DNA from: a virus
Taxonomy: Duplodnaviria; Heunggongvirae; Uroviricota; Caudoviricetes
IMG/VR virus record: IMGVR_UViG_2778261535_000013
Location: 1-43,950 of that record
DNA: 43,950 nucleotides
Direction: 5' to 3' (one strand)
Part shown: one piece after another, positions 28,408 through 43,950 of the stretch
Layout: each line of letters begins with the position of its first letter
Numbering within the stretch: position 1 is the first letter of the stretch
Notes under the pieces: generated by a model
Seen by the model: only the letters and a program-made list of their open reading frames with translations
Database searches by the model: none
Told to the model about the DNA's origin: nothing
Position numbers and translations under genes: made by a program

Positions 28408-28490
28408 TGGACCGTCACCGGGGACTCGAACCCCGCACCACAAAACAACAATACGTGTTATGCACTCTTACCCGATGAGTTAGTGACGGT
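28408..28490 (-). tRNA. tRNA-like gene with non-canonical anticodon arm (possible GUA anticodon), may be a pseudo-tRNA
   Basis: perfect acceptor stem CCGTCAC/GTGACGG, T-arm CGGGG-TTCGAGT-CCCCG and CCA end, but the anticodon arm only folds as ATAAC-ACGTATT-GTTGT with C at position 33. Confidence 0.45.
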
Positions 28491-28745
28491 TTTTTGTTCT
28501 GTGGGAATCCAGCCTGACGACAGAATTACTGGAACACCTTGCAAAAAAAGCCAGCCACCAGAGACTGGCTGGCAAATGACAGAGTTTAAATGATTCATCA
28601 TACAATCGTCGTTACAGGGGAATCCTGCGGTGCAGCAAGATACAGAAATGTAAGCAAACTAACAATAAGCAAGCACAGCATATTCGGAATTAGTTATAAT
28701 TTTAACGATGCAGTGCTTATTCAGCATGCAATTCTGCAAATTACC

Positions 28746-28771
28746 AAAAAAAAACCGCCTGCTAAGGCGGT
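28746..28771 (-). terminator. intrinsic terminator downstream of the tRNA cluster
   Basis: minus-strand stem ACCGCC/GGCGGT followed by a long T-run. Confidence 0.5.
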
Positions 28772-29135
28772 GGTCAAATCAGTAAGTGCTGAAGAGTATT
28801 ATTATAATACAAGTGAGGTGTCGGGTGCCTCCCGAAATACCTGACATTCCATCAGATACTGTAGTTTCCCGGCTAAACTACTTAAACCACCCCGCACATG
28901 GAGTTCACCTCATTTTGTGATGTTAACAACATCGGGATAGTGCATAATCAGCCCCTGCCAGGAAATATCAAAAATCCCACCAATAATGCACTATTCCGAT
29001 AGCGTCAAAAAACACAGCACCGAAATCATAACTGGTCTCCGTTATAATTCGGGAGCGCGATAAGGGATATACGAGACCTTTTCCCGCGAGAAAAAAAACG
29101 CCAGTGCTGAAAAACCTGTACCTCATTTGTTTTGC

Positions 29136-29210
<75 letters not shown>

Positions 29211-29213
29211 ATA

Positions 29214-29289
<76 letters not shown>

Positions 29290-29291
29290 AC

Positions 29292-29369
29292 TGGACCGCC
29301 ACCGGGGACTCGAACCTCGCACACTCAACTTAAAGGGTTGACGCTCTTTCCTGATGAGCTAGTGGCGGT
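29292..29369 (-). tRNA. tRNA-like gene, possible UUU (Lys) anticodon with C at position 33
   Basis: folds as CCGCCAC-TA-GCTC…GAGC-G-TCAAC-CCTTTAA-GTTGA-GTGTG-CGAGG-TTCGAGT-CCCCG-GTGGCGG-T-CCA with one T-stem mismatch; abuts the next tRNA with no spacer. Confidence 0.5.
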
Positions 29370-29445
29370 TGGTGGCCCTTGCTGGATTTGAACCAGCGAC
29401 CTGGCGATTATGAGTCGCTCGCTCTCACCACTGAGCTAAAGGGCC
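29370..29445 (-). tRNA. tRNA with CAU anticodon (Ile2/lysidine type or elongator Met)
   Basis: 76 nt GGCCCTTTAGCTCAGTGGTGAGAGCGAGCGACTCATAATCGC…GGGCCACCA; resembles E. coli ileX-type tRNA as recalled. Confidence 0.85.
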
Positions 29446-32948: not shown

Positions 32949-33986
32949 TTAATTACCCTTATCAATTTTAAGAAATACATTTCCAATCTCATCAGAATAA
33001 TCCTGTATTATTTTTGAAATGACGGCATGATCAATGGTTGGTTTTAAGAATAAAAGTGTCACAGTAATCTGCATCAAACTAATAGCAGTAGCATGGGCTG
33101 GATCAGCCATTCCTGAATCACTTTGCCCGACCAATAATATATCATCACCAGTTTCACAGAGACCAAGCCTATTTCTCATTGCCTTGGAACCGGTGTGTAC
33201 ATTCTGACTCGCCCACTTATAATAAGGGCGCATGTGTTCTAACTGAACATCTTTCTCAATAGCTCCAAACCCCACTTTATTATGGTTAGGGAAAATATAA
33301 GATGCCCACCCATAATTATCTGCATATTTTTTGCCATATTTTTTTATTAATAGATCAAATTGAACTTTACACTCAGCTATTTCTTCAATAGTTGGACCTT
33401 TTGCTTCTAACCGGTGCTCGTACTTTTTGTGTTCCAACATTCCAGTATATGAATCAACCACTTCATGGTAGTAAAAGCGCTCAGCACACTCTTTTCCATG
33501 CTTTGCTATAAACATAGCTGTGGCCGCTACCTCATGAAGTGCTCGCCATCTCGCTTGGGCAGCATCTGCAAATCCATTCTTTAAGAGACACAAAATTTCG
33601 TTGGCGATGTGGCAAGCTCTTGCGTGATGCCGAACAACTAAATCAAAAACCACATCCTCTTCAGAGGCAGCTTGTGGTCTATAAGAACGATTGAACTCTT
33701 CACCGGACTCCGTGCATATCACTATAAGTGTTTCGAGCAAATCAAAAGCCTCTGCCCATCTTGAAATATTTCTCTCAACAAATTCATCACAAAGAGAACG
33801 ATGTTCTCTAAGCATTGCATTGGCCGAGCCAATAAGAGATTTTTTAACAACAATGGCTATTTTGGGAATTAGGTTATTAATTTCTTTTTCGATATCAGCG
33901 TCACCAGATAAATCAAGTCTCTCTTTTAAAAGGCTGTCTATGTGCTCAAGCAAAATATTATGAAAAGTATCCATGTCATATCTCAA
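32949..33986 (-). CDS. orphan 345-aa protein in an AT-rich block (candidate accessory or defence gene)
   Basis: long uninterrupted ORF in a region visibly more AT-rich than its flanks, bounded by about 200 bp of non-coding DNA on each side; no confident family assignment. Confidence 0.5.
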   Translation of the reverse strand: MRYDMDTFHNILLEHIDSLLKERLDLSGDADIEKEINNLIPKIAIVVKKSLIGSANAMLREHRSLCDEFVERNISRWAEAFDLLETLIVICTESGEEFNRSYRPQAASEEDVVFDLVVRHHARACHIANEILCLLKNGFADAAQARWRALHEVAATAMFIAKHGKECAERFYYHEVVDSYTGMLEHKKYEHRLEAKGPTIEEIAECKVQFDLLIKKYGKKYADNYGWASYIFPNHNKVGFGAIEKDVQLEHMRPYYKWASQNVHTGSKAMRNRLGLCETGDDILLVGQSDSGMADPAHATAISLMQITVTLLFLKPTIDHAVISKIIQDYSDEIGNVFLKIDKGN

Positions 33987-34201
33987 TAAGTTTTAAATCC
34001 ATGTGGCACACCCATAATATAAAAATAAACAGCATGCCAGTCTAAGTCTGGCTATTTGTATATCATATCACCTGAAACATTGACAGATGTAACCCACCAA
34101 AATATTATCAATGACCACTCTTGGCACAAAGCGAACAACCACGCTAGCTCTACCTTGTGCCATGAAAATGTCAATGCATATCTGAACTAATGCCCTTTAA
34201 T

Positions 34202-36600: not shown

Positions 36601-37020
36601 ATGGACAAATATGAATTTAGACGACAGCAACTCATCAAAATTCGTGATGAGAAATGCGATGGTAAAGCGGTTAACGTGGCCAGAAAGATCGGGCGCGAGC
36701 CTTCTTATGTATCAAGAATGTTGTACCCAGAGGGGAAAAAGGGAAAAAAACGGATCGCTGATGATATGGTGGAGATTATCGAAGAGTCCTTTGGGTTACC
36801 CCGGGGATGGATGGATGGTATCGTTTCATCATCAACGAACACAGCCTCCAGTTATGAAACAAGGGTTCTAACGCCACGACAACGTATTTTTTTAGATCTC
36901 TTAGACGAACTGCCAGAAAGTGAAGCGGATAACTTATTAAAAACTCTTGAAGAGAAAAAACAGTATTACAATATGATCTACGAAGAAATCCGTAAAAAGA
37001 AAGCACAAAACGCATCATAG
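36601..37020 (+). CDS. prophage repressor (DicA/RacR-like HTH protein, no peptidase domain)
   Basis: 139 aa; HTH …VARKIGREPSYVSRM…; C-terminal …LTPRQRIFLDLLDELPESEAD… resembles DicA-type repressors (from memory). Confidence 0.55.
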   Translation: MDKYEFRRQQLIKIRDEKCDGKAVNVARKIGREPSYVSRMLYPEGKKGKKRIADDMVEIIEESFGLPRGWMDGIVSSSTNTASSYETRVLTPRQRIFLDLLDELPESEADNLLKTLEEKKQYYNMIYEEIRKKKAQNAS

Positions 37021-37062: not shown

Positions 37063-37099
37063 TACCCATGGGTATTTACTTTTTAAATACCTATGGGTA
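37063..37099. promoter_or_regulatory. second operator-like cluster downstream of the repressor gene (palindromes TACCCATGGGTA and TACCTATGGGTA)
   Basis: direct reading; shares the TACCCA half-site with the 36528-36563 repeats. Confidence 0.35.
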
Positions 37100-37285
37100 T
37101 CCTTCTTTTCATACCAACCCACCCCGCCCCACAGAATGCAGGGCAATACTTCGAGTTACCAGGCAGTGGTCAGGGGTTAAGTAGCCAGCCCGAGGCGTAA
37201 GAACATGACGGCAGGGTTCAACTTTAATAACTATGCAGCAGGTTTTTGTTCCGCTACCCCGGCGTTAAGGGGAAATGAGGTCAAC

Positions 37286-37441
37286 ATGGATACTATCGAT
37301 CTTGGCAACAACGAATCTCTGGTGTACGGCGTGTTTCCCAACCAGGACGGCACATTCACCGCGATGACGTATACCAAAAGCAAAACGTTTAAAACCGAAA
37401 ATGGTGCCCGTCGCTGGCTGGAAAGAAACTCAGGTGAGTGA
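37286..37441 (+). CDS. YdfA-like small protein
   Basis: 51 aa from MDTIDLGNNESLVYGVFPNQDG…; first gene of the rightward early operon. Confidence 0.45.
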   Translation: MDTIDLGNNESLVYGVFPNQDGTFTAMTYTKSKTFKTENGARRWLERNSGE

Positions 37442-37572
37442 TATGGATTTCGACACAATCATGGAAAAGGCTTACGAAGAATACTTCGAAGGTCTTGCCG
37501 AAGGCGAAGAAGCTCTCAGCTTCAACGAATTTAAACAGGCGCTTTCCAGTTCGGCAAAATCTAACGGCTGAT
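37441..37572 (+). CDS. YdfB-like small acidic protein (43 aa)
   Basis: ATG overlapping the previous stop (TGATATGG); MDFDTIMEKAYEEYFEGLAEGEEALSFNEFKQALSSSAKSNG. Confidence 0.35.
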
Positions 37573-37600
37573 AAGCGAAGCAGCACCGCGAGGAATCAGT

Positions 37601-37819
37601 ATGCAGAAACGAGAACCCGTCATCATCGCGCCAGACTATACCGATGATGAACTTTATGAGTGGATGCGCCAGAAAATTAATGCAGCGCAGGATCTGAAAT
37701 GGGCCAATGAAGCCAGGGCTAAGCAGGCTGAAAATCTGTCCGCTCTGGAGCAGGATATCACCAATCTGGAAAAAGCAGCGGCATTAAGCATTGCCAGAAT
37801 GATTACATACCCACGTTAA
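37601..37819 (+). CDS. YdfC-like protein
   Basis: 72 aa ORF with coiled-coil-like sequence. Confidence 0.45.
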   Translation: MQKREPVIIAPDYTDDELYEWMRQKINAAQDLKWANEARAKQAENLSALEQDITNLEKAAALSIARMITYPR

Positions 37820-37841
37820 TAGCTAACCAACGAGGCTAATA

Positions 37842-38249
37842 ATGGAATTTAAAGATTTACCAAAAGAAATCCAGACAATTGCTGCAACGACTCTCGGTGA
37901 TAGTCTGGTGAAAATTGACCCGGCATACACCAAAAAAGAAACCATCGATAATATGGTTCGTAATGTGCGCAATGCTTTTTCTGGGCTATATGGTTCTGAT
38001 AATCAAAAGCAGGAAAGCGATGTTAATGAACGGGTAATTTCTGTTTGCGTGAATGGCCATGTTCTTTCATCAATCAAAACAGAAACAGCGACAGTCTTCG
38101 ATTGCCTTTGCATTGTACAGAGCCTTGTTGATGCCCTGTTTCGTTCAGTGAATTTAGAAAATGATGCAAATCTGCGAGGGCGCACAATAGCACATCCATA
38201 TGCACATACTTTAGGCTCTGTGGATATCAAAGATCCCACAAATCTTTAA
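37842..38249 (+). CDS. hypothetical protein in AT-rich block
   Basis: 135 aa ORF with AGGCTAATAATGG start context; AT-rich relative to flanks. Confidence 0.4.
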   Translation: MEFKDLPKEIQTIAATTLGDSLVKIDPAYTKKETIDNMVRNVRNAFSGLYGSDNQKQESDVNERVISVCVNGHVLSSIKTETATVFDCLCIVQSLVDALFRSVNLENDANLRGRTIAHPYAHTLGSVDIKDPTNL

Positions 38250-38460
38250 TGAAATAGTTAACGCGAATTGTACTTGCTCTTTCAGTTGCTTTCAGAATAC
38301 GCGTTGAAACTGCTGGCGGTAATTTGGTATTCCATTTATTAAAATCATGCCCGGGGAAGTACTCTTCGAAAATACTTTTAACTGCAGACTCGCCTATTGA
38401 AATGCTGCTTACCATGCGATTTTGATAAAGGCATTTAGCAATAAGAGTTGATTTTAACAT
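38227..38460 (-). CDS. hypothetical protein in AT-rich block, convergent with previous gene
   Basis: 77 aa ORF; its 3' end overlaps the 3' end of the plus-strand 135-aa ORF. Confidence 0.35.
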   Translation of the reverse strand: MLKSTLIAKCLYQNRMVSSISIGESAVKSIFEEYFPGHDFNKWNTKLPPAVSTRILKATERASTIRVNYFIKDLWDL

Positions 38461-38793
38461 TCACCCTCCTGAGGGTTGGTAATTAAGGAGTTCTCCACGG
38501 GTGAGGTGGAGTGCGTGCGCCGGACACGGGTGAGCATCCGGCACTGACAGTTTACTGAAAGGATATTTCCATGAAAAGTCAGACCATAACGCGAAAGCGC
38601 ACGGCGAGGTAGCTGGTTCATAGATAGCCTGTCGTTAAATTTTCGTCGACCGTGCGCTTCCGGTTGTGGCACTCCGCGAAATGGCGCGGCGGTAAGTATG
38701 GCGGGGTTATTCCTTCCCCGTTGAGGACACCGGGTTGTCAGGTTGACCATACGCTTAAGTGACAACCCCGCTGCAACGCCCTCTGTTATCAAT

Positions 38794-38846
38794 TTTCTGG
38801 TGACGTTTGGCGGTATCAGTTTTACTCCGTGACTGCTCTGCCGCCC
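38794..38846 (+). ncRNA. dicF: DicF small RNA
   Basis: TTTCTGGTGACGTTTGGCGGTATCAGTTTTACTCCGTGACTGCTCTGCCGCCC followed by TTTTT matches the DicF sRNA sequence as recalled; lies immediately upstream of dicB as in Qin. Confidence 0.7.
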
Positions 38847-39020
38847 TTTTTAAAGTGAATTTTGTGATGCGGTGAATGCGGCTAAGCGCACGCGGAACAG
38901 TTAAAACCAAAAACAGTGTTATGGGTGGATTCTCTGTATCCGGCGTTAATTGTTAACTGGTTAACGTCACCTGGAGGCACCAGGCACCGCATCACAAAAT
39001 TCATTGTTGAGGACGCGATA

Positions 39021-39209
39021 ATGGAAACGTTATTACCAAACGTTAATACGTCTGAAGGTTGTTTTGAAATTGGTGTCACTATCAGTAACCCTGTATTTAC
39101 TGAAGATGCCATTAACAAGAGAAAACACGAACGGGAGTTATTAAATAAAATATGCATTCTTTCAATGCTGGCCCGTTTACGTCCGATACAAAAAGGATGC
39201 TGGCAATGA
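39021..39209 (+). CDS. dicB: cell division inhibitor DicB
   Basis: 62 aa METLLPNVNTSEGCFEIGVTISNPVFTEDAINKRK…KICILSMLARLR… matches DicB. Confidence 0.85.
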   Translation: METLLPNVNTSEGCFEIGVTISNPVFTEDAINKRKHERELLNKICILSMLARLRPIQKGCWQ

Positions 39210-39397
39210 ATACAGCATTTGCACTTGTTCTGACAGTTTTTCTTGTTTCCGGAGAGCCAGTTGATATTGCAGTCAGTGTTCACAGAACAATGCAGGAATG
39301 TATGGCAGCAGCAACCGAACAGAAAATTCCCGGTAACTGTTACCCGGTCGATAAAGTTATTCACCAGGATAGTAACGAAATCCCGGCAGGTCTTTAA
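39206..39397 (+). CDS. ydfD: YdfD-like protein
   Basis: 63 aa MNTAFALVLTVFLVSGEPVDIAVSVHRTMQECMAAATEQKIPGNCYPVDKVIHQD…; start overlaps the dicB stop. Confidence 0.75.
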   Translation: MNTAFALVLTVFLVSGEPVDIAVSVHRTMQECMAAATEQKIPGNCYPVDKVIHQDSNEIPAGL

Positions 39398-39489
39398 AAC
39401 AGTTCCGTAATAAACATCCGATTTCATTCTTATATGCCAGCAATGGCAGGGATTTGTTCACCATTAAATCTGTAATGAGGTAAAACAAA

Positions 39490-41961
39490 ATGAGTAAAGT
39501 CTTTATTTGCGCCGCCATTCCGGACGAACAGGCAATAAAGGAAGAAGGTGCAGTCGCTGTAGCTACTGCCATTGAAGCCGGTGATGAACGTCGCGCCCGC
39601 GCAAAATTTCACTGGCAATTCCTGGAACATTATCCGGCTGCTCAGGACTGCGCTTATAAATTTCTTGTCTGCGAGGATAAACCCGGTATACCCCGCCCTG
39701 CCCTCGATTCCTGGGATGCTGAATATATGCAGGAAAACCGCTGGGATGAGGAGTCTGCTTCCTTTGTCCCGGTTGAGACTGAATCAGATCCGATGAACGT
39801 CACTTTTGACAAGCTGGCCCCTGAAGTACAGAACGCTGTCATGGTTAAGTTCGACACATGTGAAAACATCACTGTTGATATGGTGATTAGCGCACAGGAA
39901 TTGTTGCAGGAAGACATGGCAACATTCGACGGCCATATCGTTGAAGCGTTGATGAAAATGCCAGAAGTAAACGCCATGTATCCGGAGCTTAAGCTGCATG
40001 CCATCGGGTGGGTTAAGCATAAATGTAAGCCTGGTGCCAAATGGCCCGAAATTCAGGCAGAGATGTGCATCTGGAAAAAACGTCGCGAAGGTGAACGCAA
40101 GGAAACCGGAAAATACACGTCTGTTGTTGATCTCGCCCGCGCCAGACCCAATCAACAGAACACTGAAAATTCAACAGGAAAAATCAACCCGGTCATTGCT
40201 GCCACTCATCGCGAATACAAGCAGACATGGAAAACACTGGATGACGAACTGGCCTACGCTCTCTGGCCTGGTGATGTGGATGCCGGAAACATTGACGGCA
40301 GCATCCATCGCTGGGCAAAAAATGAAGTTATCGACAACGACCGCGAAGACTGGAAGCGTATCTCGGCATCAATGCGCAAACAGCCTGATGCCCTTCGCTA
40401 CGACCGCCAGACTATTTTTGGCCTTGTCCGTGAACGTCCGATCGACATTCACAAAGACCCTGTGGCACTGAACAAATACATTACTGAATACCTGACTACA
40501 AAGGGCGTGTTTGAAGATGAAGGAAGAAATCAGAGCGCAACTGATACTCTCTCGTCGCCAGTACCAGAAACTGATGCAGTGGAAACGGCAATTCCGGACA
40601 ACGAAAAAACCGAATGCAAAGTGGAAGTCGAACCATCTGTAGAGCGTGAGGGGCCGTTCTACTTCCTCTTCACCGACAAGAATGGCGAAAAATACGGTCG
40701 CGCAAACAAACTTTCTGGTCTGGATAAGGCGCTGGCTGCCGGGGCTACTGAAATCACGAAAGAAGAATATTTCGCCCGCAAAAACGGTACATACTCAGGT
40801 TCACAACAAAATACTGGTGCATCTGACACGACCGCACAACCAGAGCCGGTAAAAGTTACCGCTGACGAAGTAAACAAAATTATGCAGGCAGCCAATATCA
40901 GCCAGCCTGACGCCGATGAACTGCTTGCAGTATCACGTGGTGAATTTGTTGCAGGGATTAGCGATCCGAATGATCCGAAATGGGTGAAGGGGATTGAAAC
41001 CCGCGATTCTGTGAACCAGAACCAGCAAGAAACGGAACAGAACGACCAGAAAGCGGAACAAAACAGCCCAAATGCGTTACAAAACGAGCCAGAAACGAAA
41101 CAATCCGAACCAGTAGCGCAACAGGAACCGGAAAAAGTCTGCACCGCCTGCGGTCAGAGCGGTGGCGGCAACTGCCCTGATTGTGGCGCGGTGATGGGCG
41201 ACGCAACATACCAGGAAACATTCGATGAAGAGAATCAGGTTGAAGTTCAGGAAAATGATCCGGAGGAAATGGAAGGCGCTGAACATCCACACAAGGAGAA
41301 CCCTGGCGGCAATCAGCATCACGCCAGCGATAATAAAACTGGCGAGGCGACAGATCCCTTAATTAAGGTGAATGGTCATTATAAGCTCACATCCACCAGC
41401 AGAGCGGGGATTCATCTGATGATCGACCTTGAAACAATGGGAAAAAATCCCGATGCCCCGATTATCTCAATAGGCGCAATATTTTTCGATCCACAAACCG
41501 GAGAGATGGGGCCGGAATTTAGCAAGACCATCGATCTGGATACTGCTGGCGGAGTCATTGATCGTGACGTCATTAAATGGTGGCTGAAGCAATCACGTGA
41601 AGCGCAGTCTGCCATTATGACCGATGAAATCCCGTTAGATGATGCACTACTGCAATTGCGGGAATTTATCGACGAAAACTCCGGTGAATTTTTTGTTCAG
41701 GTCTGGGGTAATGGGGCCAACTTCGACAACGTGATTTTACGCCGTTCATACGAACGACAGGGTATCCCCTGCCCGTGGCGCTACTGCAACGATCGCGATG
41801 TACGCACAATCGTTGAGCTGGGGAAAGCCATAGACTTCGATGCCAGAACTGCTATCCCATTCGAAGGTGAGCGCCATAATGCACTTGATGACGCTCGTTA
41901 CCAGGCAAAATACGTTTCAGCTATCTGGCAAAAACTGATCCCGAGTCAGGCTGATTTTTAA
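39490..41961 (+). CDS. large prophage protein with C-terminal DnaQ-like (DEDDh) 3'-5' exonuclease domain
   Basis: 823 aa; exo motifs …MIDLETMG…, …WGNGANFDNVIL…, …HNALDDARYQ…; central CxxC…CPDC zinc-ribbon-like motif; acidic Gln-rich linker. Confidence 0.6.
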   Translation: MSKVFICAAIPDEQAIKEEGAVAVATAIEAGDERRARAKFHWQFLEHYPAAQDCAYKFLVCEDKPGIPRPALDSWDAEYMQENRWDEESASFVPVETESDPMNVTFDKLAPEVQNAVMVKFDTCENITVDMVISAQELLQEDMATFDGHIVEALMKMPEVNAMYPELKLHAIGWVKHKCKPGAKWPEIQAEMCIWKKRREGERKETGKYTSVVDLARARPNQQNTENSTGKINPVIAATHREYKQTWKTLDDELAYALWPGDVDAGNIDGSIHRWAKNEVIDNDREDWKRISASMRKQPDALRYDRQTIFGLVRERPIDIHKDPVALNKYITEYLTTKGVFEDEGRNQSATDTLSSPVPETDAVETAIPDNEKTECKVEVEPSVEREGPFYFLFTDKNGEKYGRANKLSGLDKALAAGATEITKEEYFARKNGTYSGSQQNTGASDTTAQPEPVKVTADEVNKIMQAANISQPDADELLAVSRGEFVAGISDPNDPKWVKGIETRDSVNQNQQETEQNDQKAEQNSPNALQNEPETKQSEPVAQQEPEKVCTACGQSGGGNCPDCGAVMGDATYQETFDEENQVEVQENDPEEMEGAEHPHKENPGGNQHHASDNKTGEATDPLIKVNGHYKLTSTSRAGIHLMIDLETMGKNPDAPIISIGAIFFDPQTGEMGPEFSKTIDLDTAGGVIDRDVIKWWLKQSREAQSAIMTDEIPLDDALLQLREFIDENSGEFFVQVWGNGANFDNVILRRSYERQGIPCPWRYCNDRDVRTIVELGKAIDFDARTAIPFEGERHNALDDARYQAKYVSAIWQKLIPSQADF

Positions 41962-42013
41962 TGTTCAACTGTCGCCAGTTGTCGTTGGTATTCTGCAACT
42001 GGCGCGTTCCGGA

Positions 42014-42292
42014 GTGATAGCCATGAGCGAACAGTACCTGATAACGCTCGATGAGTGGAAGCCAAAACGGTTCAGTCTCCCAATAACAAACACTACCCTG
42101 GTGAAATACGGAAAACTAGGATACATCGTTCCAAGACCACAAAAAATTCGTGGGCGTTGGCTGATAGATCGCCGGGCAGTATTTGTTGGACCTGGTGAAA
42201 TGGGAATTGCGCCGGAAATTCATACTGGCGATGATGATGCACTGAAGGAGATTTTAACTCATGTCACCGAGGCCACGAAAAAACAGCACTGA
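42014..42292 (+). CDS. xis: excisionase-like protein
   Basis: 92 aa ORF immediately upstream of and overlapping the integrase gene. Confidence 0.5.
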   Translation: MIAMSEQYLITLDEWKPKRFSLPITNTTLVKYGKLGYIVPRPQKIRGRWLIDRRAVFVGPGEMGIAPEIHTGDDDALKEILTHVTEATKKQH

Positions 42293-43379
42293 CGTAACCG
42301 GTCTTTACGAAAAGTTTGATCGCAGAACTGGCAGGGTTTACTACCAGTATAAAAATCCTGTGACTGGAAAATTTCACGGACTCGGAACAGACAAAGGTAA
42401 GGCAGAAAAAATCGCTTCCACAGCCAATCAGCGAATAGCTGCAGCAGAAGCTGAATATTTCATGCGCAAAATTGATGAAAGTCCGTCAGCAACAAAACGT
42501 CGGGGTATCAGATTAAAGGCATGGGTTGATCGATATCTGAAAATACAGGACGCGCGACTGAAAAATGGAGATATTGCAGCTACAACTCACAAAGAAAAAG
42601 CCCGAATGGCTGCATACCTGGTTTCCCGTCTGGGAAACCACCCATTGAAAGAACTGGAAGTAAGAGACTTTGCATTAATACTGGATGAGTGGCTGGATAA
42701 AGACATGGTCAGCACAGCGAGAGTAAATCGTGGATTATGGGTTGATATTTATAAAGAAGCACAGCATGCAGGGGAAGTTCCTCCTGGATGGAATCCTCCG
42801 GAGGCTACCCGTAAACCGATCCCTAAAGTAACCAGAGCCAGACTCACCCTGGAGGACTGGCAAAAAATTTACAATTCAACACCAGAAAAACACTTTATCC
42901 GTAACGCAATGCTTCTTGCGATTGTTACTGGTCAGCGCCGTGATGACATTTGCCACATGCGTTTTTCAGATGTGTGGAACGAACACTTGCATATCACCCA
43001 GGGAAAAACCGGAATGCGTCTGGCGTTACCGCTTACGCTACGCTGTGATGCCATTGGAATATCGCTAAAAGAAGTGATTGATGGATGCAAGGACAGAATA
43101 TTGAGTCCATACCTGATTCATAGTCGGCACCAGAAACAACCAAAACCAATGAGTAAAGATAACCTGAGCGACTACTTTGCTAAAGCGCGGGATCTGGCAG
43201 GAATAACTCCACCAGCAGGAAAAACACCACCAACATTTCATGAACAACGCTCCCTGTCAGAACGACTGTACCGCGCACAGGGTATCGATACAAAAACATT
43301 ACTGGGACATAAAGTCCAAGCAACCACCGATCGTTATAACGATACTCGTGGTCAGGAATGGGTTAAATTGGTTGTTTGA
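42261..43379 (+). CDS. int: tyrosine integrase, lambda Int family
   Basis: 372 aa; C-terminus …HEQRSLSERLYRAQGIDTKTLLGHKVQATTDRYNDTRGQEWVKL parallels the lambda Int C-terminus. Confidence 0.9.
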   Translation: MSPRPRKNSTDVTGLYEKFDRRTGRVYYQYKNPVTGKFHGLGTDKGKAEKIASTANQRIAAAEAEYFMRKIDESPSATKRRGIRLKAWVDRYLKIQDARLKNGDIAATTHKEKARMAAYLVSRLGNHPLKELEVRDFALILDEWLDKDMVSTARVNRGLWVDIYKEAQHAGEVPPGWNPPEATRKPIPKVTRARLTLEDWQKIYNSTPEKHFIRNAMLLAIVTGQRRDDICHMRFSDVWNEHLHITQGKTGMRLALPLTLRCDAIGISLKEVIDGCKDRILSPYLIHSRHQKQPKPMSKDNLSDYFAKARDLAGITPPAGKTPPTFHEQRSLSERLYRAQGIDTKTLLGHKVQATTDRYNDTRGQEWVKLVV

Positions 43380-43451
43380 CGAAATAAATACAGCTGTAAC
43401 GTTGCCAGTAATTAACAACCGATAAAAATGTTGATATTGCTTTACTGATGT

Positions 43452-43479
43452 AAAAACCCCGGCATCAGCCGGGGTTTGG
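43452..43479. terminator. bidirectional intrinsic terminator between int and the convergent gene
   Basis: stem CCCCGGC/GCCGGGG with loop ATCA, flanked by A-run and T-run. Confidence 0.5.
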
Positions 43480-43482
43480 AGA

Positions 43483-43950
43483 CTAATCTTGATCAGGTTC
43501 CTGCTTAGAATAATGTTTTCCAACAATAAATGCCGTAACCAATGCAACAAGATCTATTGAAACGAGAGCTCCAGCAAGAACAGTCTCCCCCATGACACCA
43601 AAGACAGCAGCAACGAAGATAATCAATATCGCCAGCCAAAAAGCCTTTGTTTGACCATCTCTGGCAATATCAATGGTATCAGCCACCGTTTTGTGGCGAT
43701 GAGCCTGCTCCTTTTCAGTCAACTCAACAAGCCTATTTGCAAGCCCTGGCATCAGTTGATCATACTTTTTAAGCATTGATGGCGGAGGAACCGGCCCCTG
43801 AAAATGCTGGCAAACAATAGCTCGTACCTGCGGGCTCTCCAAAACCCTGTTTAAGACTTCTGGATTTTCGATTACTCGAGAAACCAGTTCATTGTCCTTT
43901 TGTTCTTCACAAGTGAGTTTGGTGTTCTCACTTTCTTTTTGATCTGGCAT
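43483..43950 (-). CDS. hypothetical membrane protein (start codon at window end)
   Basis: 155 aa ORF with ATG at 43950-43948 and a hydrophobic C-terminal half; convergent with int. Confidence 0.4.
   Translation of the reverse strand: MPDQKESENTKLTCEEQKDNELVSRVIENPEVLNRVLESPQVRAIVCQHFQGPVPPPSMLKKYDQLMPGLANRLVELTEKEQAHRHKTVADTIDIARDGQTKAFWLAILIIFVAAVFGVMGETVLAGALVSIDLVALVTAFIVGKHYSKQEPDQD

Follow-up and report, generated by a model that had tools for sequence, protein, structure and literature searches.

Genomic context

The window, by which we mean the whole 43,950-nucleotide stretch of caudoviral DNA analyzed here (IMG/VR record IMGVR_UViG_2778261535_000013), carries at 39490..41961 of the + strand an open reading frame, the sole long one at that place, which begins with ATG and encodes 823 residues (Table I). 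The protein is 100% identical to WP_032084640.1, an 'exonuclease' in the RefSeq annotation of Escherichia coli ETEC1749, and its match to PHROG 2082 spans residues 1-823 of 823. Residues 1-256 share 96% identity with the K-12 pseudogene ydfE (b1577, Qin prophage), and homologues in the YdfE family at 91-96% identity carry precomputed PF27430 (YdfE_N) and PF27432 (YdfE_C) assignments. By sequence, the gene is the intact form of K-12 ydfE, from Qin-type lambdoid prophages. It is already named and catalogued, is very common, and belongs to a known and ordinary family: of the 5426 complete E. coli genomes, 3533 (65%) have the intact gene, which sequenced phages carry as well, and split or partial copies also exist. 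Literature searches on ydfE/YdfE, on PF16473/Rv2179c, and on DEDDh domains with RecE found no functional (enzymatic or genetic) study of the protein, and those on PDB entry 7T2S returned DinG papers only.

The complete Qin-type early-left operon (ydfA-ydfB-ydfC, DicF, dicB, ydfD, ydfE, xis, int) is kept. Running from the repressor toward int, the order is DUF1391/ydfA, ydfB, ydfC, a 135-residue hypothetical protein, DicF, dicB, DUF1482/ydfD, the gene described here, and xis. K-12 Qin and the phages Tritos and 606R7 have the same order, with this gene as the final early-left gene ahead of xis-int. In Rac, the corresponding place is taken by recE-recT, in agreement with an earlier sequence-only reading that located the gene in the recombination-exonuclease slot of lambda and Rac. 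The same reading held that no RecT/Bet-like gene lies before xis, which RefSeq annotation and a Pfam scan bear out: RecT, Bet, and Erf are absent from the unassigned early genes scanned, and no annealase is annotated in the early-left operon. A crude promoter scan found no promoter-like site just upstream of the gene.

Table I. Features of the ydfE-family gene, the protein it encodes, and the flanking operon
Feature	Coordinates	Strand	Basis
DicF sRNA, upstream, same operon	38795..38846	+	Rfam RF00039, 76.7 bits vs gathering score 48
dicB and ydfD (DUF1482), directly upstream	39021..39397	+	RefSeq annotation of 99.6%-identical stretch; PF07358
Shine-Dalgarno GAGG	39477..39480	+	9 nt ahead of ATG, read straight from the sequence
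Whole gene, intact ydfE-family 'exonuclease', 823 aa	39490..41961	+	ORF list, WP_032084640.1, PHROG 2082, K-12 ydfE
Domain 1 (aa 1-100), alpha/beta; probable remote homologue of RecE N-terminal domain (PF06630)	39490..39789	+	
Domain 2 (aa 105-205), all-helical; probably part of YdfE_N, limits inferred	39802..40104	+	AF2 pLDDT 80-92; PF27430 in homologues
Domain 3 (aa 240-340), helical; probably YdfE_C, limits inferred	40207..40509	+	AF2 pLDDT 80-89; PF27432 in homologues
Domain 4 (aa 385-435), small beta-hairpin and helices, motif ERxGPFY...GRANK...EI..EE	40642..40794	+	AF2 pLDDT 81-88
Middle segment shared with RecE (aa 474-624): RGEFVxGISDPNDPKW motif, Q/E-rich linker, putative zinc ribbon, acidic linker	40909..41361	+	
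Putative zinc ribbon (aa 547-570), C551-x2-C554-x7-C562-x2-C565	41128..41199	+	Cys positions, CTAC-x7-CPDC
DEDDh 3'-5' exonuclease domain, DexA/Rv2179c-like (aa 642-813)	41413..41928	+	PF16473, T4 DexA match, catalytic residues
Excisionase and integrase, directly downstream, no annealing-protein gene between	42023..43379	+	ORFs, RefSeq annotation

The C-terminal exonuclease domain

The C-terminal domain matches PF16473 (Rv2179c-like 3'-5' exonuclease) over profile positions 2-177 of 177, with an E value of 2.6e-66 and a score of 223.1 bits against a cut-off of 27. Searches of the PDB highlight T4 DexA (8KEL/8KEN; E 1.4e-5), and the RNase Rv2179c gave no match at E <= 1 in these searches, profile search included. 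Judged by sequence, the closest solved relative is T4 DexA, which carries the annotation of a 3'-5' DNA exonuclease (PMC12153337). On alignment, D646, E648, D746, H796, and D801 pair with DexA D7, E9, D119, H186, and D191, so that the D-x-E, D, H-x4-D catalytic pattern is complete. The five residues are kept in 120 cluster representatives, bar one E648K substitution. Together with the lack of a PD-(D/E)xK domain, the Pfam match and the DexA alignment uphold the earlier description of a DnaQ-like C-terminus with no RecE-type nuclease.

The two proteins share a Pfam family and approximately 26% identity over the domain, with all five DEDDh residues aligned. DexA, however, is a stand-alone protein of 227 residues with extra loops, encoded by a virulent phage, whereas 630 additional residues precede the domain in the present protein.

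Affiliation with this family raises two alternatives to the DNA-end trimming favored below. The first is a 3'-5' exoribonuclease acting on phage or host RNA, either in trimming or turnover of early transcripts or in degradation of small RNAs and oligonucleotides. The Pfam family is named for Mycobacterium tuberculosis Rv2179c, a 3'-5' exoribonuclease, NCBI names follow, and the operon is shared with the processed sRNA DicF. DNA and RNA are both substrates for many DEDDh enzymes. That the Pfam family takes its name from an RNase, and that many NCBI copies are entitled '3'-5' exoribonuclease', counts against the reading we prefer. Even so, we consider an RNase role unlikely, given that the domain is nearer in sequence to DexA than to any solved RNase, Rv2179c being absent at the threshold given above, and that the attached scaffold also occurs in proteins of DNA recombination, namely RecE and a Rad52-fold annealase.

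The second is a prophage defence or superinfection-exclusion nuclease that, like EcD, would selectively digest the 5hmC-modified DNA of infecting T-even phages. EcD, a stand-alone E. coli homologue of DexA, is reported to degrade the T4 genome while leaving unmodified dsDNA intact and to confer protection against T4, and Escherichia is said to contribute the biggest fraction of DexA homologues in bacteria (PMC12153337). The gene shares its Pfam family with DexA and EcD, and its wide distribution (65% of complete E. coli genomes) would suit such a role. A defence function is nonetheless improbable. EcD is a different, short protein, and neither of the DexA residues tied to 5hmC recognition, W152 and D169 (PMC12153337), is conserved: W152 aligns with C766 (H, C, Y, T, or S in 120 homologues) and D169 with A780 (A in 120). 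Furthermore, the gene lies deep in a repressed early-left operon without a promoter-like site upstream, unlike typical defence morons, which are expressed in the lysogen.

The non-catalytic scaffold

The approximately 630 non-catalytic residues comprise four small folded domains, disordered acidic or Gln-rich linkers, and a Cys4 zinc-ribbon motif. A multi-domain protein with long acidic, Gln-rich linkers had been anticipated from the sequence, and is recovered in the AF2 domains and the linker composition (35% Q/N and 22% D/E in residues 501-546; 27% D/E in residues 571-629). When domain 1 was aligned as a profile to the profile of RecE-type N-termini, hhalign gave a probability of 92.8% and an E value of 3.9e-7, with no direct PF06630 match in Pfam. 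Domain 3 displays weak similarity to Rac-SA53 RecE (residues 262-336 against 295-368; 27% identity, E 2e-4), and the middle segment is closely related to the same protein (residues 474-624 against 471-614; 74% identity, E 2e-68). Domain 4 accounts for the majority of invariant positions in the family alignment and is kept regardless of which C-terminal module comes after. No informative fold match was obtained for the scaffold folds, domain 2 included. Taken together, the non-catalytic body appears homologous to that of RecE.

The CxxC...CPDC motif pointed out in the sequence-only reading corresponds to C551, C554, C562, and C565 (CTAC-x7-CPDC). All four are retained by each of 120 close homologues, and Rac RecE has them as well; they are missing from more distant DEDDh relatives among representatives selected at 50% identity. 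The match to the Pfam double-zinc-ribbon family (DZR) is sub-threshold (E 0.12). We regard the zinc ribbon as a conserved motif and, as a fold, putative.

Similarity to RecE along the entire length, PD-(D/E)xK domain included, against which the sequence-only reading had set its own account, was not found. With the NCBIfam RecE equivalog NF007259 the protein reaches 283.8 bits, the cut-off being 1269, and the match is confined to residues 444-626; Pfam detects no PF12684-type PD-(D/E)xK domain in the protein, in contrast to genuine RecE and RecE-type relatives. This partial match, and phage records bearing the names 'exodeoxyribonuclease VIII' and 'exonuclease VIII, ds DNA exonuclease', would suggest orthology to canonical RecE (exodeoxyribonuclease VIII, which degrades dsDNA 5'-3'). 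It was rejected, and its probability is vanishingly small: the domain content, with a DEDDh C-terminus where PF12684 would be expected, refutes it, as do the equivalog score and the lack of recT. The sequence-only reading was correct in that the nuclease is not of RecE type but understated the link to RecE, since the zinc-ribbon motif and most of the 630 non-catalytic residues are RecE-type scaffold. On these comparisons, the protein is best read as a RecE with its nuclease swapped, only the nuclease module being different.

Exchange of C-terminal modules

The first homologue search was saturated with E. coli sequences of at least 91% identity and was uninformative on diversity, whereas representatives at 50% identity were informative. 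Among about 60 long representatives at this level, the same N-terminal modules are joined to a RecE-type PDDEXK nuclease in 13, to a Rad52-fold module in 21, to a DEDDh domain in 11, and to an unknown module in 7. DEDDh domains are repeatedly found fused to scaffolds that diverge from one another, a RecE-type N-terminus among them.

This recurrence bears on the proposal that the gene is a functionless mosaic, generated by recombination between prophages and passively carried. Extensive mosaicism is typical of lambdoid prophages, similarity between the window and the ETEC1749 prophage comes in blocks only, the K-12 version is truncated by IS2, and split or partial copies occur elsewhere. Against this stand the full-length frame, which 3533 genomes and sequenced phages have retained, the invariance of the zinc cysteines and conservation of the catalytic residues (with the one exception noted above) across 120 cluster representatives, and the repeated fusion of DEDDh domains to divergent scaffolds. 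Passive carriage is consequently very unlikely.

It is tempting to speculate that the RecE/YdfE scaffold is a general platform delivering interchangeable DNA-end effectors to one cellular target, and that its DEDDh version represents an annealase-independent pathway of phage DNA-end processing. If so, the DEDDh version might degrade 3' tails and thereby channel ends into a host pathway, or might disarm a host or defence function. We know of no description of such a pathway for lambdoid phages, and rate the idea as rather doubtful. What the census does provide is a set of natural domain-swap variants for probing the scaffold, the 600-residue N-terminal body of RecE recurring with four different C-terminal effectors.

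Proposed function

The explanation that we favor, at somewhat better than even chances, is a modular early-operon nuclease of Qin-type prophages, in which a RecE-like scaffold is combined with a DexA-like DEDDh domain that trims DNA 3' ends. We infer three of its elements, namely a DNA rather than an RNA substrate, the timing of expression, and the biological role. The early-left operon would be transcribed after induction, and the gene would be expressed early in lytic growth; this timing is proposed because of the operon position and the crude promoter scan. The scaffold would most likely serve as a tether or adaptor, through self-association or by engaging a partner protein or DNA ends, a role suggested by domain swapping, the folds themselves matching nothing informative. 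The DEDDh domain, in the place of the RecE nuclease, would most likely strip nucleotides from DNA 3' ends by two-metal catalysis, with the predicted trimming taking place during phage replication or recombination.

The protein is not a two-component recombinase of the RecET or Red type, because there is no dedicated annealase. In addition, a 3'-5' exonuclease destroys the 3' tails used by RecA and annealases, and a recombination-promoting role is therefore not obvious.

The finding is not a discovery, but it is useful for annotation and for RecE biology. One protein currently goes by several names: 'exodeoxyribonuclease VIII', which is wrong here; '3'-5' exoribonuclease', which is unproven; and 'exonuclease'. 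It is a modest question why approximately two thirds of complete E. coli genomes have a prophage "recombination slot" with a predicted 3'-5' exonuclease and no annealase.

Comparison with known systems

EcD, also termed 'HREX' (PMC12153337), resembles the protein in being a DEDDh member of the DexA family encoded in E. coli. It differs in being short and in its termini, which from the cloning primers start with MIDTET and end with TIPETYD. Identity with this defence exonuclease was rejected on the basis of the primer-derived termini and the non-conserved recognition residues.

K-12 YdfE (b1577) has the same surroundings, with ydfA-ydfB-ydfC-dicF-dicB-ydfD upstream and an integrase downstream. 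There, however, IS2E cuts the gene after approximately 256 matching residues, leaving it without domains 3 and 4, the putative zinc ribbon, and the exonuclease, whereas the copy in the window is complete.

Rac RecE occupies the same operon slot, as the last large early-left gene before xis/int, and has a probably homologous N-terminal domain, a similar domain 3, and a middle segment with GISDPNDPKW and the Cys4 zinc-ribbon motif. The N-terminal body of RecE has no known function and is dispensable for nuclease activity, yet enhances linear-linear recombination (PMC11611040). One difference is the C-terminal PD-(D/E)xK 5'-3' nuclease (PF12684) of RecE, replaced by the DEDDh 3'-5' domain in the protein described here. 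Likewise, recT comes next after the RecE of Rac-SA53 and after P0129, a scaffold relative of RecE type, whereas here xis comes next, with no recT partner.

Finally, SynExo-type recombinases (lambda Exo/Bet and RecE/RecT) correspond to the gene in genomic position and, as far as its expression can be predicted, in early timing. The scaffold family also includes true members of this type, in which the scaffold carries the RecE nuclease and is followed by RecT, or is fused to a Rad52-fold annealase. In contrast to these, the intact YdfE protein combines the shared scaffold with neither a 5'-3' nuclease nor an annealase, has no Rad52-like module, and ends instead in a DEDDh domain.

Gene identity and operon context

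The 823-residue ORF is a prophage gene already known and named; it is very abundant, and its architecture has been catalogued. Its DNA is 100% identical to the 'exonuclease' gene (WP_032084640.1) of the porcine E. coli ETEC1749; 3533 of 5426 complete E. coli genomes contain a match covering at least 80% of it, and sequenced phages carrying it include mEp460_ev081, Evi, Tritos, HannyBb and PPompW prophages. The protein matches PHROG 2082 ('exonuclease') end to end, and residues 1–256 share 96% identity with the K-12 pseudogene ydfE (b1577, Qin prophage), which, unlike the window copy, is interrupted by IS2E. Pfam names the N-terminal regions of the family YdfE_N (PF27430) and YdfE_C (PF27432). 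Taken alone, these claims of identity and architecture are held with high confidence. Databases list the family under discordant names ('exodeoxyribonuclease VIII', 'exonuclease VIII, ds DNA exonuclease', '3'-5' exoribonuclease', 'exonuclease' and 'Exodeoxyribonuclease encoded by cryptic prophage CP-933P'), and no functional study of a ydfE-type protein was found in the literature searched.

The gene order is that of the Qin early-left operon (after the repressor: DUF1391/ydfA, ydfB, ydfC, DicF, dicB, ydfD/DUF1482, ydfE-family gene, xis, int). No promoter-like site was seen directly 5' of the ydfE-family gene, so the simplest reading would be that the gene is expressed together with the early operon upon induction. 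The sequence-only reading had noted that no RecT/Bet-like partner precedes xis, and no single-strand annealing protein was found in the early-left operon or the other early genes scanned. Just past a repressor-like gene and ahead of the operon is a hairpin with a T-rich run behind it, which resembles a terminator or a regulatory element.

Compared with the ETEC1749 prophage, the window is a mosaic: 37111–43950 alone is collinear with unchanged coordinates (99.6% identity), the remaining blocks are 95–98% identical but displaced, and the immunity regions are different. Five tRNA genes were called by ARAGORN; in the 95%-identical ETEC1749 stretch RefSeq labels two corresponding genes tRNA-Arg and tRNA-Ile, and the tRNA identities therefore differ between callers or between phages. 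GC content in the window is lowest (0.39 in 33001–34000 versus about 0.5 elsewhere) where the DUF5677 gene lies; the ETEC1749 prophage, though otherwise related, lacks this gene at the corresponding position, and it may have been acquired as an accessory gene.

Features of the window (nt) and of the N-terminal part of the ydfE-family protein (aa)
Feature	Position	Strand	Description
tRNA genes	28408–29445	−	Val-aac, Gly-tcc, Thr-tgt, Lys-ttt, Met-cat; between Q antiterminator and lysis genes
DUF5677 gene	32949–33986	−	344 aa
Repressor-like gene	36601–37020		139 aa
Hairpin	37063–37099	+	16-bp stem
DicF antisense sRNA	38795–38846	+	Rfam RF00039, 76.7 bits; flanked by ydfC and dicB, the arrangement of K-12 Qin
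Ribosome-binding site	9 nt 5' of ATG		GAGG, ydfE-family gene
Intact ydfE-family gene	39490–41961	+	single 823-aa ORF, ATG start
Domain 1	aa 1–100		alpha/beta (AF2)
Domain 2	aa 105–205		helical (AF2)
Domain 3	aa 240–340		helical (AF2)
Domain 4	aa 385–435		beta-hairpin and helices, near-invariant ERxGPFY...GRANK motif (AF2)

Exonuclease domain

The C-terminal DEDDh exonuclease domain proposed by the sequence-only reading is borne out by a full-length match to PF16473 (Rv2179c-like 3'-5' exonuclease, DnaQ/DEDDh clan; residues 642–813, E = 2.6e-66) and by alignment of D646, E648, D746, H796 and D801 with D7, E9, D119, H186 and D191 of DexA (T4 exonuclease A), the nearest solved relative (PDB 8KEL/8KEN, E = 1.4e-5). 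With the exception of one E648K, the catalytic residues are invariant in 120 cluster representatives, homologues at least 91% identical. By itself the domain is found in 732 phage records, for the most part as stand-alone proteins of ~170–190 residues, and a DEDDh gene also lies close 5' of the integrase in Yersinia phage YeP2 and Salmonella phage As1.

An intact DEDDh active site is thus carried on a RecE-type scaffold, the non-catalytic ~630 N-terminal residues, in the early operon's recombination slot. We lean, slightly, toward a protein that would act early in lytic growth as a Mg-dependent 3'-5' exonuclease on DNA ends, positioned by the scaffold; this activity is predicted. DNA is favored over RNA as substrate because DexA, the nearest characterized relative, is a DNA exonuclease, because Rv2179c (an M. 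tuberculosis 3'-5' exoribonuclease) went undetected in the PDB searches, and because the other enzymes found on the scaffold act in DNA recombination; the exoribonuclease of NCBI naming is improbable. A defense nuclease in the manner of EcD/HREX, a stand-alone E. coli DexA homolog (PMC12153337), is also doubtful: EcD is a different, short protein, its proposed 5hmC-recognition residues are not conserved here (C766, A780), and the operon position speaks against expression in the lysogen. Conservation and recurrence make an inert mosaic remnant unlikely. Because 3'-5' resection removes the tails used by annealases and RecA, a recombination-promoting role for the predicted exonuclease is not obvious.

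Scaffold and exchange of C-terminal modules

An AF2 model of residues 1–470 (mean pLDDT 73; its low pTM fits a beads-on-a-string protein) comprises four folded units. Beyond them the protein continues with the conserved motif RGEFVxGISDPNDPKW, a linker rich in Q and E, the putative zinc ribbon, a second linker of acidic composition and finally the exonuclease. The sequence-only reading's ribbon stands in part: its cysteines (C551, C554, C562, C565; CTAC-x7-CPDC) are invariant in 120/120 cluster representatives (at least 91% identity), while the Pfam match is sub-threshold and the putative ribbon is a conserved motif only. The flanking linkers are 35% Q/N with 22% D/E on one side and 27% D/E on the other.

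Residues 1–470, searched exhaustively against 50%-identity representatives (E ≤ 0.001), retrieved only 191 proteins, and the closer relatives with organism names are all Enterobacteriaceae. Module mapping of ~60 long representatives revealed that the same N-terminal modules carry differing C-termini: a module with a KKSLTDAxKKALSxLGF motif (21 representatives), a RecE-type PDDEXK nuclease (13), the DEDDh domain (11) and an unknown module (7; PHROG 26058), with no recognized module in eight. The first of these, initially recognized by motif only and given no name by sequence methods, yields an AF2 model (pLDDT 83, pTM 0.70) that matches Rad52-family annealases, and is on this basis a predicted Rad52-fold annealase. 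Gene context agrees: a RecT homolog (39% identical to RecT of the Rac prophage Rac-SA53; E = 1e-61) comes after a RecE-type member (P0129), and a Rad52-fusion member (P0128) is flanked by a weak Gam match and Sipho_Gp157. Modules and context thus tie the scaffold to phage recombination functions, and the DEDDh variant is the family form with neither 5'-3' nuclease nor annealase. The fourth module (~200 residues; P0125, P0215, P0220, P0229, P0245 and P0262, from Enterobacter and relatives) bears LLSGRT..M...EAEGVVSCTGH and QQLT.AAL.GLCANPA motifs, and has no Pfam match; its sole match is PHROG 26058, of unknown function.

Relation to RecE

The gene is an ordinary object that leaves a small, testable question; our analysis adds its identification as intact ydfE, the link to the RecE scaffold, and effector swapping that includes a scaffold-Rad52 fusion. 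The sequence-only observation was confirmed and its interpretation supported, although it had contrasted the protein with RecE, which most of the non-catalytic portion in fact resembles. Residues 474–624, including the putative ribbon, are 74% identical to Rac-SA53 RecE 471–614, which accounts for a partial NCBIfam RecE match (283.8 bits versus a cut-off of 1269). Domain 3 shares 27% identity with RecE 295–368, and Domain 1 is remotely homologous to the PF06630 domain at the RecE N-terminus (hhalign Prob 92.8%, E = 3.9e-7). The N-terminal body of RecE is not needed for nuclease activity and has no known function, yet it stimulates linear-linear recombination (PMC11611040). A canonical RecE is refuted by the NCBIfam score, by the missing recT neighbor and by the catalytic module, which is PD-(D/E)xK (PF12684) in RecE and DEDDh in the window protein.
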